From a virus (taxonomy: Duplodnaviria; Heunggongvirae; Uroviricota; Caudoviricetes), in IMG/VR virus record IMGVR_UViG_2703718820_000015, positions 1 to 36,246 of that record: a stretch of 36,246 nucleotides of DNA; one strand, 5' to 3'. Made by a program: the position numbers and the translations under genes. Shown here one piece after another: positions 3,682-23,569 of this stretch; the first letter of the stretch is position 1; each line of letters starts with the position of its first letter. The notes beneath the pieces were generated by a model. That model saw only the letters and a list, made by a program, of their open reading frames with translations, was not told the DNA's origin and searched no databases.

Positions 3682-4617
3682 TCAGTAGTTATGTACTGAA
3701 GGAGGTAATTCTTTATTCTTAAGTCTCATCCATGCGGAAAGATTCGTTGGTCCGTCTGGCTCATTGATATCAACATCTCGTGTGTGATTGATTAAAACGT
3801 CTCTCGCCATTCCGATAACATACGAGAACTCATGACCATAGTCGTAGCATCTGCCGGAATAGTTCGATTGAATTTGTTTTAATGCCGGATACAGTTCGCG
3901 GAATAACGCCTGTGAGCGGTTGGCATAATCCCATAACCATACAAGGCTGTTTGCTTCTTTTGCAGAAAGCTCGTTGGTTTTCTTCTCTTGTTTGCCAATG
4001 AACTCACCTTCAAGCGGAACGCGAGCAGCAAGTGACAGTGCTTCGGTAAACTGCTCATCACTGATTTCTTTGTACGAACATCCAAAATGGGATTTCAGTG
4101 ACGACCACATGGTGATCATCGCCTTCGCCTGTTTTTCTTTTGGCAGAGACTGACCGCGACTCATGACGAGTTGTTTAATGGCTTCCTGCTGTTCAGTGGT
4201 GATTTTACCCGGCAACGCCTTTTTAGCTTTGCGTGGGTTAACTACATGGCCTTTAGTCCAGTAGTCATGCAGCACGCTAAAGCATTCCTCCTGGTACTGA
4301 ATCAGTTTATCACGGATGTCAGCACGAACTTTCTCAGGGTTGATGCTGAACAGCCATCCATTTAGCTTCTTCAAAGGAAGGCAGAGTAGCTTACGAAGCT
4401 TCCCATCAGCGGCAACCATGTTCATATGAACACAGTTGAATTTGCTAATCTGCTTCATGAGTTTTGTTTGCTGCGTTGACCAGCTCATTCCAAGGTTTTC
4501 AACGATTGGCTTCATCGCAACATATGCAACTCCGGCAGCCATGGCGGTGATAATTTGCTGACCGTTGAATGGTACGTAAGAGGTGTTCACTGCTTCTAAA
4601 ATTGCTATACTATTCAT
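3682..4617 (-). CDS. ant: Antirepressor Ant
   Basis: Position immediately downstream of arc. N-terminus [21 protein letters not shown] preceded by GGAG SD, so start is set at 4617 rather than ORF-track 4683. Antirepressor-type domain architecture. Confidence 0.85.
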
Positions 4618-4688
4618 GTTGGTTTTTCTCCACGGATTTACTGACAACCGAAGCCCTGACTGTTCCCGCAGTTGGGGCTTCAACTTTA
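4618..4688 (+). ncRNA. sar: Candidate sar-like antisense RNA complementary to the ant ribosome-binding region
   Basis: By analogy with P22 sar (about 69 nt, antisense to the arc-ant junction). Plus-strand TATACT -10 at 4606-4611; imperfect hairpin AAGCCC...GGGCTT plus U-rich tail near 4651-4688. Boundaries are inferred. Confidence 0.4.
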
Positions 4689-4847
4689 CGCGCCAATGCG
4701 CCCTTCCTTCTTAAAGCTGTCCATTACTCTCTGATAAATCTCAGAGTTAACAGACCGACCATTCTCTTCCGCCACCTTGCGTACCAAATCCAACACTTCT
4801 TTAGGCCACCGCAAATTGAACTGCGGCATTTTGCTCATTCCTTTCAT
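4686..4847 (-). CDS. arc: Arc repressor
   Basis: 53 aa [53 protein letters not shown], near-identical to P22 Arc as recalled; SD GAGGTG. ORF-track start at 4910 lies inside the Arc operator and is rejected. Confidence 0.95.
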
Positions 4848-19187: not shown

Positions 19188-19606
19188 TTTCCGAATAGAG
19201 TGCTCATCGGTGATGTTTCAATCTGAATTGCGCCGCCGTCCTTACCGACAAGCTCGTTAGTTACCTTGTCGCCATACTTACGGGGATTCATTCGGGCCAG
19301 CGCCCATTTGCGGGTATCAACGCGAAGTCTTGCCTTTGCCACCTCAGCAGCATCTGGAATCGCATTGTCAGCAATTTCGAATATCTCTTCGAAAATAGAA
19401 TCAGCTCGTGCCTCAGTTGCCTTCGCGTACTTGTCGCGAAAATCCTCATGCTTTGCCAACCAGCGGAAAACAGTGGACTTATCCGGCATACCAGGACGCT
19501 TACATACTTTCAGCAAACTTTCGCCAGAAGAAAGCAACGAGCAGATATCGTCAGCCACCTCCGGCATATAATCAGAGGGGCGACCAGCTTTTGGTTCAGT
19601 CGCCAT
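19184..19606 (-). CDS. Terminase small subunit (Sf6 gp1-like)
   Basis: MATEPKAGRPSDYMPEVADDICSLLSSGESLLKVCKRPG... matches the Sf6 TerS N-terminus as recalled; an alternative start two codons upstream at 19612 is possible. Confidence 0.85.
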   Translation of the reverse strand: MATEPKAGRPSDYMPEVADDICSLLSSGESLLKVCKRPGMPDKSTVFRWLAKHEDFRDKYAKATEARADSIFEEIFEIADNAIPDAAEVAKARLRVDTRKWALARMNPRKYGDKVTNELVGKDGGAIQIETSPMSTLFGK

Positions 19607-19818
19607 ATTCATCTCACTTAGTTGTTATTTCAGGCTGAGGACTCTTTCGCGCCTTCAATCAGTGACTGCTTCAGCAATTCAAGTGTGCCAATCGCCTAGC
19701 ATAAACTGATTTCACCATCGTAATCATGGATGACGCTTTCCAGCCGCTTGTATAGCTCTTGAGTAATTGGGAATTTCTTCTCCTTACCAAGATCAACGAC
19801 GCTTGTCATAGAGGATTC

Positions 19819-20106
19819 CTATAATTTTGAATATCCAGACTCAAATACCTCAGCAGGAGAATATGATTCATATCCATCCTCATAGACAACGTAATAGCCT
19901 CCAGACATTGGTCGGTGCTTACAGATATATTCCGCGCTAACATCAAATGCTGCGTATTTCTTATCATCCGGATGAATAATTGCCCCATAACTAGAAGAGC
20001 CAGTCTTACCAGACTGATCTGGGTTTGGCTTATGTTCTATAGAGCCAATCTTCAGGGCGCGAACTTTTTTGTGGCACTGGTATCTCGGCATTTCTTGTTC
20101 AGTCAT
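19819..20106 (-). CDS. Hypothetical protein (95 aa)
   Basis: Intact ORF in the late-operon direction between lysis genes and terS; no family recognised. Confidence 0.45.
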   Translation of the reverse strand: MTEQEMPRYQCHKKVRALKIGSIEHKPNPDQSGKTGSSSYGAIIHPDDKKYAAFDVSAEYICKHRPMSGGYYVVYEDGYESYSPAEVFESGYSKL

Positions 20107-20109
20107 CTC

Positions 20110-20352
20110 TTACACTCCGGTAGTGAACAGGTCTAACGCTTCCTTCGATTTACGCACCGCTTCGATAGTGCGGGTCGTGATATCCGAATTAGCGCCGCCT
20201 GACTGGAAGTGAATTTTGAATAGCTCAAGCTTCAGCTCGTCAGTGCCAATGAACTGAAATGCTTCTTCTGCGGCTGCGTTCTGGTTCATGACCAGTTTGT
20301 AAATCTCTAACTGGAATTTCTGTTCTTCAGTCATGGGAATAATCTCTGCCAT
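20110..20352 (-). CDS. Hypothetical protein (80 aa)
   Basis: ORF with AACGGAG SD; tightly packed with the downstream 95-aa gene. Confidence 0.45.
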   Translation of the reverse strand: MAEIIPMTEEQKFQLEIYKLVMNQNAAAEEAFQFIGTDELKLELFKIHFQSGGANSDITTRTIEAVRKSKEALDLFTTGV

Positions 20353-20905
20353 TGTTGGCTCCGTTTATCCGTTAAAAGGGATATCAGTTAAGTTATCCCG
20401 TGTAGGGTATAAGCCATTATCAAAGCCACTCTGTAGGGAATGGCTTTTGTGATGGCATCACTTACTCTTTACGCTGCTATCCCACTCATCCCGGAATTTT
20501 GATGGGTTATTGAAACCTTCTGCTGACATAACAACTCCTTCAATATTTGGCTGGAATTAGGATGTCTTTCCATCAGTCCGCCACCACAAAGAATCTTTTT
20601 TGCCTTAAGGCTGGAGGTTCATCTTTCAGTGGCTGCCAGTGTTATTTCCCCACTTACTGGCTTGGGTTGTTTCGCGGTACTGCCGTAACTGGTTGCCCAG
20701 AATAAATTCCGGTTTCATTATCAAGCCCACCCGTAGATAGGCTTTGTAATGAACCGGCTCTTATCTCAACGCAGCCCCTTACCGCGCGCCAGATGCTCAA
20801 TATCAAGCATCAGCAATGAGATATTTAATCTGGATTCACTCCAGAAGTGATCACCACCCTGTCTACAGAGCCAGATGTGAAGGATGATGAGTAAAATTAT
20901 CGCTA

Positions 20906-21343
20906 TCATCGAAGGCATTGCGTCCTGATGTACTCCTGCAGGTAGTTAACCTGCGCGGTTATCTTGTCGATTCCACTTCGGAGACGGTAATAATTGAGTT
21001 CAGCATCTGCTGTAAGTCTTGGGCTTTCTCCATCGCCCATGCCGCTGGCTCCGGTCGTTGACTTTGCACAGGTGGCGGCGACTTGCAGGCGCTTACGACC
21101 AGCAGAAACATCAGCACGGAGACTTTCGATAGTCGCGTTAGCATCAGCAAGCTCCTTTGTGTATCTGGCGTCGAGTTCTGCTACATCACGTTGACGCTTC
21201 TGCATATCAGCGATGATGGATGCGGCCTTATCACGCTGCTCTTTGTAGGCGATGGCGTTATCACGGTAATGATTAACAGCCCATGACAGGCAGACGATGA
21301 TGCAGATAACCAGAGCGGAGATAATCGCGGTTACTCTGCTCAT
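20906..21343 (-). CDS. Spanin inner-membrane subunit Rz (i-spanin)
   Basis: 145 aa; N-terminus [31 protein letters not shown] closely resembles lambda Rz; C-terminal half diverges. Confidence 0.9.
20959..21150 (-). CDS. Spanin outer-membrane lipoprotein Rz1 (o-spanin), embedded in Rz in another frame
   Basis: 63 aa; lipobox LVVSAC then a Pro-rich segment; nested in the +1 frame of Rz as in lambda. Confidence 0.8.
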
Positions 21344-21816
21344 ACCTCAATCTCTCTGACCGTTCCGCCTGCTTCTTTGAATTTTGCAATCAGGCTGTCT
21401 GCCTTATGCTCGAACTGACCATAACCAGCACCCGGCAGTGAAGCCCAGATATTGCTGCAACGGTCGATAGCCTGACGAATATCACCGCGATCAATCATCG
21501 GTAAAGCGCCACGCTCTTTAATCTGCTGCAATGCCACAGCGTCCTGGCTTTTGGGAGAGAAGTCTTTCAGGCCAAGCTGCTTACGGTAGGCATCCCACCA
21601 ACGGGAAAGAAGCTGGTAACGTCCGGCGGCTGTTGATTTGAGTTTGGGGTTTAGCGTGACAAGTTTGCGAGGGTGATCGGAGTAATCAGTGAATAGCTCT
21701 CCGCCTACAATGACGTCATAACCATGATTTCTGGTTTTCTGCCGTCCGTTATCAGTTCCCTCTGACCACGCCAGCATATCGAGGAACGCCTTACGTTGAT
21801 TATTGATTTCCACCAT
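21340..21816 (-). CDS. R: Endolysin, lambda R-type lytic transglycosylase
   Basis: 158 aa [39 protein letters not shown]..., near-identical to lambda R as recalled. Confidence 0.95.
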
Positions 21817-22123
21817 CTTCTACTCCGGCTTTTTTAGCAGCGAAGCGTTTGATAAGCGAACCAATCGAGTCAGTACCGATGTAGCCGATGAACACGCTCG
21901 TTATATAAGCGAGATTGCTACTTAGTCCGGCGAAGTCGAGAAGGTCACGAATGAACCAGGCGATAATGGCGCACATCGTTGCGTCGATTACTGTTTTTGT
22001 AAACGCACCGCCATTATATCTTCCGCGAAGGTACGCCATTGCAAACGCAAGGATTGCCCCGATGCCTTGTTCCTTTGCCGCGAGAATGGCAGCTAACAGG
22101 TCATGTTTTTCTGGCATCTTCAT
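21800..22123 (-). CDS. S: Holin, lambda S-type (dual-start MKM motif)
   Basis: 107 aa [39 protein letters not shown]..., near-identical to lambda S as recalled. Confidence 0.95.
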
Positions 22124-22673
22124 GTCTTACCCCCAGAAGGGGATCTGTTCAAATTAGGAATTATGGATATGGTCGCTTGAACAAATCCGGGTTACGGTTG
22201 ATTTGTAGCGGGTTTGTTCGTGACCGCATTCATGAGCAAATCAGGCGTGGATTGCGCCAACAATACATGCCGCTCATATCACGAAGCCCAGCCATTGATG
22301 CTGGGTTTTCTTTTTTAAAGCGCACTAGACAACCGTATCCACAGAGTGTCAGCAATGAGTTGGTTAGGTCTAGTTCTTGGTGGAAGTACGCTTTAAAAAA
22401 TGGGCTGAGGGTTGTAGCCCAAAATACTGAGGGAATGGTAAGGATGAACAACGGTTTTGCTCTGGGTGGATTTGGCTGTGGTGGCCGACGCTGATCTCCG
22501 GCTTGTATACAGGCACCTTGTTCTTCCGAAGCTCTCCTGCGCGCATCAGCCTGCGCATTCACCACACCGGAAAGAGCACTCAGTTGTACCGGCCAGTTGT
22601 GCCACTAAGAAATGCTTTCGCAGACCGTTAAGCTCTTTGCCAGTTCTTTAATGCTCTTACCTGTTGTGCAGAT

Positions 22674-22733
22674 ATAAAAAATCCCGAAACCGTTATGCAG
22701 GCTCTAACTATTACCTGCGAACTGTTTCGGGAT
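22674..22733 (-). terminator. tR' terminator (end of the 6S late leader RNA)
   Basis: Minus-strand CCCGAAACAGTTCGCAGGTAATAGTTAGAGCCTGCATAACGGTTTCGGG hairpin plus AUUUUUUAUAUC, matching lambda tR' as recalled. Confidence 0.85.
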
Positions 22734-22866
22734 TGCATTTTGCAGACCTCTCTGCCTGCGATGGTTGGAGTTCCAGACGATACGTCGAAGTGACCAACTA
22801 GGCGGAATCGGTAGTAAGCGCCGCCTCTTTTCATCTCACTACCACAACGAGCGAATTAACCCATCG

Positions 22867-22903
22867 TTGAGTCAAATTTACCCAATTTTATTCAATAAGT
22901 CAA
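22867..22903 (-). promoter_or_regulatory. Late promoter PR' with qut site (-35 TTGACT, -10 TAAATT)
   Basis: Minus-strand TTGACTTATTGAATAAAATTGGGTAAATTTGACTCAACGATGG matches lambda PR'/qut as recalled; TSS near 22867; PR'-to-tR' distance about 190 nt, as for 6S RNA. Confidence 0.85.
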
Positions 22904-22945
22904 TATTATGCCGTTAATATGTTGCCATCCGTGGCAATCATGCTG

Positions 22946-23569
22946 CTAACGTGTGACTGCGTTCAAAATGTTGTCTGCGATTGACTCTTCCTTGTGGCAT
23001 TGCACCACCAGAGCGTCATACAGCGGCTTAACAGTGCGTGACCAGGTGGGTTGGGTAAGGTTTGGGATTAGCATCGTCACAGCGCGATATGCTGCGCTTG
23101 CAGGCATCCTTGAATAACCGACGCCTTTACATCTTCCGCACTCTTTCTCAACAACTCTCCCCCACTGCTCTGTTTTTGCTATATCAACCGCACGACCTGT
23201 ACCGTGGCAATCTCTGCATCTTGCGCCCGGCGTCGCGGCACTACGGCAATAATCCGCATAAGCGAATGTTGCGAGTACTTGCAGTACCTTTGCCTTAGTA
23301 TTTCCTTCAAGCTTTGCAACGCCACGGTATTTCCCCGATACCTTGTGTGCAAATTGCATCAGATAGTTGATAGCCTTTTGTTTGTCGTTCTGGCTGAGTT
23401 CATGCTTACCGCAGAATGCAGCCATTCCGAATCCGGCTTGTGATTGCGCCATCCCCATAGCAGCCATCACATCAGTACCGGAAAGAGAGTCAGAAGCCGT
23501 AGCCCGTGGTGAGTCGCTCATCATCGGGCTTTTTGGCGAATGAAATTTAGCTACGCTTTCGAGTCTCAT
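22946..23569 (-). CDS. Q: Late antiterminator Q (lambda type)
   Basis: 207 aa MRLESVAKFHSPKSPMMSDSPRATASDSLSG..., near-identical to lambda Q as recalled. Confidence 0.95.
   Translation of the reverse strand: MRLESVAKFHSPKSPMMSDSPRATASDSLSGTDVMAAMGMAQSQAGFGMAAFCGKHELSQNDKQKAINYLMQFAHKVSGKYRGVAKLEGNTKAKVLQVLATFAYADYCRSAATPGARCRDCHGTGRAVDIAKTEQWGRVVEKECGRCKGVGYSRMPASAAYRAVTMLIPNLTQPTWSRTVKPLYDALVVQCHKEESIADNILNAVTR

Follow-up and report, generated by a model that had tools for sequence, protein, structure and literature searches.

A nearly cargo-free two-slot hotspot with a conserved hairpin scaffold between the lysis and packaging genes of a P22/Sf6-like prophage

In this study, we examined a gene-poor stretch of about 550 bp (positions 20353-20905) between Rz and the DUF2560 gene in a viral DNA of 36,246 nt (IMG/VR record IMGVR_UViG_2703718820_000015, in its whole length referred to here as the window), and relate it to a hotspot of cargo genes, a structured hairpin motif and a reported small RNA. 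The window represents a P22/Sf6-like (Lederbergvirus-type) prophage whose late operon runs on the minus strand. On balance we favour the reading that the stretch is a nearly cargo-free hotspot with two slots and a conserved scaffold, the hairpins of which would act as elements of RNA processing or stability. We hold the structural and evolutionary part of this description with high confidence, and put forward the role of the hairpins in RNA processing or stability tentatively. In P22-like and HK97-like lambdoid phages, the hotspot separates the lysis cassette from the DNA-packaging genes. Between the two possibilities raised by a first-pass annotation of the sequence, decayed cargo or a structured RNA element, the evidence supports the second, given a hairpin that covaries and is present in two copies, and a core 95% identical to the P22G small RNA.

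Results

Layout of the stretch

Read in the direction of late transcription, the stretch is laid out as a gp65-like open reading frame (ORF), a hairpin (hpB), a 126-nt core, a 23-codon micro-gene, a second hairpin (hpA), a weak terminator-like hairpin and then the DUF2560 gene. Its features are as follows.

20766..20918, minus strand: 50-aa ORF, homolog of Sf6 gene 65, with a hydrophobic N-terminus; overlaps the last 13 nt of Rz
20743..20751, minus strand: slot B junction CAUUACAAA, placed by breakpoints and junction sequences
20714..20753, minus strand: hpB, UUCAUUA-CA-AAGCCUAUC-UACG-GGUGGGCUU-GA-UAAUGAA; covariance model R1, 60.6 bits, E = 8.5e-13
20561..20686, minus strand: core 'F2', 126 nt, non-coding, homolog of nt 59-186 of the 204-nt P22G
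20454..20555, minus strand: cargo slot A (breakpoints 20453/20556 or 20431/20561), 102 bp, here with only the micro-gene and its ribosome-binding site
20458..20529, minus strand: micro-gene MSAEGFNNPSKFRDEWDSSVKSK, 23 codons, AAGGAG at 20540-20535, stop 1 nt before hpA
20413..20456, minus strand: hpA, GCCAUCA-CA-AAAGCCAUU-cccuacag-AGUGGCUUU-GA-UAAUGGC; R1, 54.0 bits, E = 3.7e-11
20374..20399, minus strand: GGGAUA-N10-UAUCCC followed by UUUU, weak terminator-like hairpin, 25 nt before the DUF2560 start

In line with the first-pass annotation, the ORF list contains no ORF of 60 aa or more on either strand of 20353-20905, the longest being of 52 aa (plus strand, 20547-20705), 50 aa (minus, 20654-20806, with a TTG start) and 50 aa (minus, 20766-20918). 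Minus-strand RNA folds more stably than dinucleotide shuffles (z = -4.0 for 20353-20470; z = -3.4 for 20530-20770), which indicates that the features of the interval are more than chance. Four features escaped the first pass: the family membership of the 50-aa ORF at 20766-20918, the common identity of the hairpin regions 20753-20714 and 20456-20413, the homology of the middle part to a P22 small RNA, and the use of the interval as a hotspot in relatives.

Two slots for exchangeable cargo

Interval length was surveyed in 88 related loci in which both anchors, Rz and DUF2560, could be found. The distance between the anchors ranges from 304 to 1913 bp, and the 553-bp form is restricted to the source prophage and E. 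coli H1. Pieces of the interval are found in 216 phage records and in 2720 of 5426 complete E. coli genomes; full-length colinearity is seen in one genome only, again E. coli H1. BLAST comparison with 18 annotated relatives placed the homology breakpoints at 20431/20453, 20556/20561, 20686-20701 and 20743-20751.

These breakpoints frame two slots. In relatives, slot A carries genes of the Sf6 gp66/Gp49 family or DUF551, or has shrunk to about 24 bp (epsilon34, CUS-3, SEN22); the fill described here is shared with HK544, Emek, E. coli H1, STEC711, QL57EC and 23CRST032. Slot B is occupied in relatives by Rha, KilA-N, GIY-YIG, a 96-aa ORF or genes annotated as 'anti-CRISPR'. In these cargo-bearing relatives gp65 is followed by CATTACAAA, a canonical terminator (AGCCUCGCAUUYGCGGGGCUUUUUU), the cargo and CATTACAAAGCC..., two copies of the 9-mer thereby flanking cargo and terminator. 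Only a single copy of CATTACAAA is present here, and slot B is therefore empty. Each slot ends in a hairpin: hpB is found at the 3' edge of slot B and hpA, 44 nt long, at the 3' edge of slot A, the two copies being 300 nt apart with hpB upstream.

Direct evidence of recombination between hairpin copies comes from one locus (L066), in which the body of hpB is joined to the 3' flank of hpA (L066 3395-3441) and everything between them is deleted. The minimal interval of 304 bp (L068) retains only gp65, a terminator and hpA. Separately, the HK97-like phage HK544 (L002 745-826) retains the first 27 codons of DUF2560 beside an HNH endonuclease gene, a scar of late-region exchange between podovirus-type and siphovirus-type phages.

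A covarying hairpin motif

Comparison of hpA and hpB shows them to be two copies of one structured motif of about 45 nt, YCAUUA-CA-(7-9 bp variable stem)-loop-(stem)-GA-UAAUGR. The pairing AAAGCCA (20446-20440)-N12-TGGCTTT (20427-20421) pointed out by the first-pass annotation is present on the minus strand and forms the inner stem of the longer hairpin 20456-20413. Its second copy, hpB, was missed by the repeat finder because the two differ by indels; the lower stem of hpB reaches approximately 20765-20702 here.

In an alignment of 31 distinct hairpin copies, 93.8% of cells are paired, compared with 27-51% when the partner is slid, and double changes are found in 8 of 16 pairs. The covariation score of 0.41 (0.24 in shuffles) was reached by none of 500 shuffles. 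The inner stem occurs as AAAGCCA/UGGCUUU, GAGRCCA/UGGYCUC, AAGCCCA/UGGGCUU or GCAGCCC/GGGCUGC; the second of these, carried by hpA of epsilon34, CUS-3 and P22, amounts to three compensated pairs. With regard to strand, 63 cells are G-U on the sense strand, as against 11 A-C cells (G-U on the opposite strand), and most hpB copies have the RNA-stabilising c(UACG)g tetraloop. This G-U excess and the loop assign the structure to the transcribed strand, and the motif is thus one selected on the mRNA-sense strand.

The covariance model R1 retrieved 165 copies in 100 loci, all of them on the sense strand and at hpA or hpB positions, with only two in the whole 36-kb window. ORFs of at least 12 unrelated families have the motif after their stop codon, at a distance of 1-2 nt in six families, the micro-ORF described here included, and the same element follows differing cargo genes in relatives. 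In Stx2 phages hpB is present alone, after a cargo ORF downstream of Rz. A divergent copy after the DUF2560 stop in the Proteus phage Brookers keeps AUUA, the CA/GA internal loop, UAAU and UACG, while its stems are compensated. Measured against the definition of a Rho-independent terminator (a GC-rich stem-loop with a direct U-tract), neither hpA nor hpB qualifies, as no U-run follows either. Readings of GATAATG as an integration host factor (IHF) site or a Fur box were rejected by eye, the required flanking consensus being missing.

A core homologous to the small RNA P22G

Ten small RNAs have been reported in P22-infected Salmonella, among them P22G (Naaz et al., Noncoding RNA 2026;12(4):21, PMC13397905). 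It is 204 nt long, was detected at 488 reads per million (RPM) in infected cells by small-RNA-seq, and extends from the last rha codons through the core into the 5' arm of hpA (PMC13397905). Against the published sequence (P22 nt 21,873-22,076) the core described here is identical at 122 of 128 nt (95.3%), P22G nt 59-186 corresponding to window positions 20686-20561; nothing here corresponds in register to the first 58 nt or the last 18 nt of P22G. Strand and synteny are shared with the P22 locus (L014): both sequences are on the late-operon strand, after the post-Rz cargo of slot B (rha in P22) and before hpA and orf80, the P22 name for DUF2560. The two arrangements differ in that the 5' part of P22G comes from the 3' end of rha, whereas here rha is absent and hpB is in its place, and in that the core abuts hpA in P22, whereas here a 23-codon gene is inserted between them.

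Conservation of the core is high. It is present in 94 of 99 loci, including those of the siphoviruses HK97, HK022 and HK544, with identities of 88-99%. Over 23 loci its nucleotide diversity is 0.017, and that of the hp2-to-ATG segment is 0.007; third-position diversity in the same loci is 0.071 for DUF2560 and 0.093 for endolysin, so that the core is four to five times lower. RNAalifold, applied to 68 distinct core copies, gave 25 pairs and no covariation. The low diversity fits constraint.

Two further observations concern the core and P22G. Metagenome-assembled genomes (MAGs) labelled Cellvibrionaceae, Bacillota, Collinsella and Bacteroidales (L106, L107, L110, L111, L112) contain a perfect 22-nt core match, and four of these five loci also have full-scoring hairpin copies; they are probably mis-binned phage contigs. 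P22 'orf25' (L014 1302-1379; MSGLDNGLY...), which has been used as a putative P22G target (PMC13397905), begins with an AUG in the hpA loop, its frame running on across the 3' arm. We rejected it as a micro-gene homolog, and it probably represents an artefact ORF.

A 23-codon micro-gene

The micro-ORF of 23 aa with an AAGGAG site, likewise seen in the first pass, is confirmed on the minus strand at 20529-20458 including the stop, with AAGGAG 5 nt 5' of the ATG. Judging from its sequence relatives, it is probably a real conserved gene. The family spans 23-27 codons and occurs in phages of six enterobacterial genera. Exact 23-codon homologs, each with a GGAG-type site, are found in the E212 type (MATQGFDNPSKFRDEWDKQAEGK; about 35 of 100 loci, placed between DUF2560 and terS), in the Proteus phages Brookers (after a terminator and before the Gp49 gene) and Pm34 (after Rz), and in Providencia PSTNGR2lys (between two terminators); Enterobacter and Cronobacter phages have 27-codon versions. 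Within the conserved core, G-F-x-N-P-x-K-F-R-x-E-x-D, most changes fall on third codon positions, the counts between source prophage and E212 being 1/0/4 by codon position.

PHROG and NCBIfam gave no match to the micro-gene, and Pfam DUF2740 stayed at 13.2-13.6 bits, below its 27-bit gathering cut-off, with three of the four family members; the aligned part was always residues 5-18, at profile positions 19-32. When a 52-aa stop-to-stop stretch of a Cronobacter phage served as a surrogate query, a large protein database gave one near-identical protein (94%) and no annotated relative, as would be expected if most gene callers skip a gene this short. In two phages, annotated coding sequences (CDSs) overlap the 23-codon ORF in another frame (Brookers, L101 1501-1572 and 1538-1972; Pm34, L102 1460-1606). 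The Gp49-family gene of Brookers more likely starts at ATG 1590.

The gp65-like ORF and the GGGAUA/UAUCCC hairpin

The gp65-like ORF matches PHROG 11822 over residues 1-50 of 50 (E = 3.9e-38) and is annotated as a CDS in Sf6 and epsilon34, and by PGAP in the E. coli relatives examined that retain gp65. Its frame is intact in 52 of 53 copies. Segregating sites number 8/9/12 by codon position, with 9 synonymous versus 21 non-synonymous, a neutral-looking pattern that shows no sign of purifying selection, and its coding status is uncertain.

As proposed, GGGATA (20399-20394) and TATCCC (20383-20378) are separated by 10 nt on the minus strand and followed by TTTTAACGG. This hairpin has a stem of 6 bp, three of them G-C pairs, and a 10-nt loop; it was left uncalled by the terminator scan because its loop exceeds 8 nt. 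It is near-invariant in 80 of 88 loci and missing in L038, L043, P22 and L095. Covariation, suggested in the first pass as a check on both hairpins, is strong for the AAAGCCA/TGGCTTT motif but not informative for GGGATA/TATCCC.

Genomic surroundings

The flanks of the interval are as the first-pass annotation had claimed. Rz, together with Rz1, is on one side, and DUF2560, a 95-aa ORF and the terminase genes are downstream.

23569-22946, minus strand: Q antiterminator
22123-21800, minus strand: holin
21816-21340, minus strand: endolysin
21343-20906, minus strand: Rz, with Rz1 nested inside
20352-20110, minus strand: DUF2560 (P22 orf80, Sf6 gp67), GGAG at 20362-20359 and ATG at 20352
19819-20106, minus strand: 95-aa ORF 3' of DUF2560
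past the 95-aa ORF: small terminase (a Pfam Sf6_terminase match), then large terminase

Rfam 15, scanned over 19500-21800 at E <= 1, returned only a chance mir-458 match on the plus strand (22 bits against a gathering threshold of 59). On the minus strand of 19600-21500, a scan for promoters and terminators found none, the promoter part being a consensus scan only. ARAGORN found no tRNA in the window; this includes the 820-bp gap between Q and holin (22124-22945), where Sf6 and E. coli H1 have tRNA-Asn and tRNA-Thr.

Near the terminase genes, the 95-aa ORF aligns to positions 1-94 only of the 182-position PHROG 11049 profile and may be a half-length or truncated member. Between it and terS, a 37-aa ORF (MTSVVDLGKEKKFPITQELYKRLESVIHDYDGEISLC, 19696-19809, minus strand) corresponds to the N-terminal part of Sf6 gp68, P22 Orf59c and HK620 hkbN (59-63 aa); given its early stop, this hkbN homolog is a truly truncated gene, just outside the interval. 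Homologs of two P22 antisense RNAs are present elsewhere in the window: 23as at 23381-23424 (plus strand; 44/44 nt aligned, 97.7% identical), inside the Q gene, and sar at 4612-4715 (plus strand; 104/104 nt aligned, 98.1% identical). The window contains no match to P22F, P22E, oop or sas.

Discussion

We propose that the stretch would be transcribed within the minus-strand late operon, and that the hairpins in the late transcript may serve as processing or stability elements which close each cassette. As such they could shield upstream segments from 3'-to-5' decay, keep the folding of the core constant whatever cargo is upstream, and bracket a stable P22G-like fragment. The hairpins and the core may also supply homology for the gain, exchange and loss of cassettes, as they are the sole repeated and conserved sequences flanking the cargo; loss of cassettes through this homology would have left both slots essentially empty here. 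The micro-gene would be translated into a putative hydrophilic peptide of 23 aa.

Several points weigh against this reading. P22G derives from one small-RNA-seq study, in which it is defined by read coverage only, and it is not among the two RNAs checked there by reverse transcription PCR (PMC13397905); it may be a coverage block of late mRNA and not a discrete molecule. The absence of covariation in the core is explained by how little the core varies, and its low diversity fits recent spread by recombination as well as constraint; the adjoining gp65 ORF is equally invariant, yet lacks a coding signature. Most hairpin copies come from closely related phages, and the independent compensations are consequently few: the Proteus copy and some five types of stem. 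Single-stranded DNA (ssDNA) tolerates G-T wobbles too, so a DNA-level hairpin on that strand is possible. The micro-gene, finally, is carried by only about 14 deposited phage records.

Among the other explanations, a role at the DNA level only, with the hairpins as attC-like recombination sites at cassette ends or as short homologies for phage recombinases, appears unlikely. It would account for the joining of unrelated cargo genes to the element at the same nucleotide, for the duplication of the 9-nt half-site CATTACAAA around slot B cargo, for the L066 hybrid, made by a crossover between hairpin copies, and for outer arms and a CA/GA loop conserved in sequence from E. coli to Proteus phages. 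However, the locus is not associated with any dedicated recombinase, every copy of the element is on the transcribed strand, its G-U pairs and cUACGg tetraloop are RNA-type features, and P22 infection leads to a build-up of RNA that covers the core and one arm of a hairpin; moreover, selection that keeps genes and hairpins intact could be enough to put the junctions at gene ends. It is quite improbable, too, that the hairpins are moron terminators which stop transcripts not modified by Q and so keep lysogen-expressed cargo from reading into the head genes. Their place at the 3' ends of cargo genes, the downstream GGGAUA/UAUCCC hairpin with its UUUU, and the canonical terminators found beside cargo in relatives, and beside the micro-gene in phages of Proteus and Providencia, are all in keeping with such a function. 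Yet hpA and hpB are followed by GCUUAUACCC and AAACCGGAAU, in which there is no U-tract, the scan found neither a terminator nor a promoter-like site on the minus strand here, and what the annotators of HK544, epsilon34 and Emek marked is another GC-rich hairpin, upstream of the cargo.

The remaining two explanations treat the interval as coding sequence, past or present. That it consists of eroded accessory genes which relatives hold intact, the other half of the first-pass proposal, we consider very unlikely. Both slots are indeed occupied by intact genes in relatives, as the suggested alignment to related prophages revealed, a truncated hkbN/orf59c homolog (19809-19696) is found just beyond the interval, HK544 keeps its 27-codon DUF2560 stump, and the TAA that cuts the short ORF of the core is seen in just 3 of 68 distinct copies, the source prophage included. 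But the intact genes of relatives (Rha, KilA-N, GIY-YIG, Gp49, DUF551) are cleanly absent here at conserved, common junctions and without frameshifts, while the non-cargo sequence is present in 94 of 99 loci, with identities of 95-99%, and less diverse than nearby synonymous sites. Apart from the gp65-like ORF, no Pfam or PHROG family matches any frame of 20340-20930 (stop-to-stop peptides of at least 30 aa), which argues that the interval is not eroded coding sequence, and the core ORF is broken in so many phages that it can never have been a gene. There is, finally, scarcely any likelihood that the core encodes a small protein (MNLLPYGKKDSLWWRTDGKTS..., the N-terminus of the ST64T/ST160 'orf118') of which the copy here would be a pseudogene. 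The ORF in question (ATG at 20622; MNLLPYGKK...) is cut by TAA at codon 6 here. Most copies have the ATG and the frame, which in ST160 and ST64T continues into orf80 as an annotated 118-aa protein, a similarity also remarked on by the annotators of epsilon34. Against this, about 10 of 68 distinct copies are broken (three by TAA, five by a +1 and one by a -1 frameshift, one by a change of ATG to ATA), on which ground we do not regard the ORF as a gene; in addition, there is no usable ribosome-binding site, GAAAG abutting the ATG, and conservation upstream of the ATG equals that of the ORF.

Intercistronic stem-loops are known to stabilise or process polycistronic mRNA, as do the REP (repetitive extragenic palindromic) hairpins in malEFG and the RNase III sites of T7 and of lambda sib. 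The hairpins described here resemble these in being conserved, free of a U-tract and placed directly after a stop codon inside a long operon, with lower stem, internal loop and upper stem together of about 18 bp, or about 26 bp for hpB here; the predicted shape, 16 pairs plus a 2x2 loop and again about 26 bp for hpB, is compatible with an RNase III site, which calls for about two turns of double-stranded RNA and an internal loop. They differ in having a conserved sequence of their own (AUUA, CA/GA, UAAU) that belongs to no Rfam 15 family, and in occurring at a single locus, twice in each genome, instead of being scattered.

Morons and boundary sequences (Hendrix/Juhala; bsq of HK620/Sf6) offer a second comparison. 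Shared with them are variable accessory genes between conserved late genes, a canonical terminator beside the cargo in relatives, and short conserved sequences at mosaic joints. Unlike morons, the cargo region here has no sigma-70 promoter of its own by a consensus scan of the minus strand of 19600-21500; and unlike boundary sequences, which in the Sf6 and CUS-3 records are placed elsewhere than at hpA and hpB, the joints here are structured, covarying hairpins and not plain linkers. Integron attC sites are similar in that they are imperfect hairpins with conserved outer arms and a variable inner stem, 3' of an exchangeable gene and with one strand favoured. In contrast to integrons, there are only two slots here, and the hairpin is transcribed in an essential operon and has RNA-type features. 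The annotation tables of the related loci examined name no integrase, although no search was aimed at integrases. The resemblance to attC is one of form only.

The hotspot and P22G were already known; this prophage contributes a further member and places both in a comparative frame. By contrast, the hairpin motif and the 23-codon family appear to be undescribed, though of familiar kinds: they are not in Rfam, Pfam, PHROG or NCBIfam, are unmarked in the Sf6, CUS-3, HK544 and epsilon34 records and were not found in the literature searched, and the interval goes unmentioned in the epsilon34, BTP1, Sf6-evolution and LF82/Gally papers. In a bolder version, which we think rather unlikely, the hairpin would be a specific recognition site, for a nuclease or RNA-binding protein or as an ssDNA recombination structure, that sets the 3' limit of each exchangeable cassette in late operons of lambdoid phages; the hairpin and the P22G-like core would make up a regulatory RNA module between lysis and packaging genes, and the 23-aa peptide would be a functional micro-protein moving as its own mini-cassette.

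Conclusion

Few places in P22-like, HK97-like and Stx phages are as mosaic as the junction of lysis and packaging genes, at which accessory genes collect, among them genes annotated as anti-CRISPR, nucleases and regulators. As current ideas are not overturned, the value of our findings is descriptive and hypothesis-generating. If they are borne out, a covarying hairpin that ends cassettes and a small-RNA core would provide a handle on how cargo is exchanged and expressed, a gene family of 23 codons missed by gene callers and family libraries would be added, and P22G would gain a comparative context, with conservation in phages of two morphotypes and a defined motif on either side.

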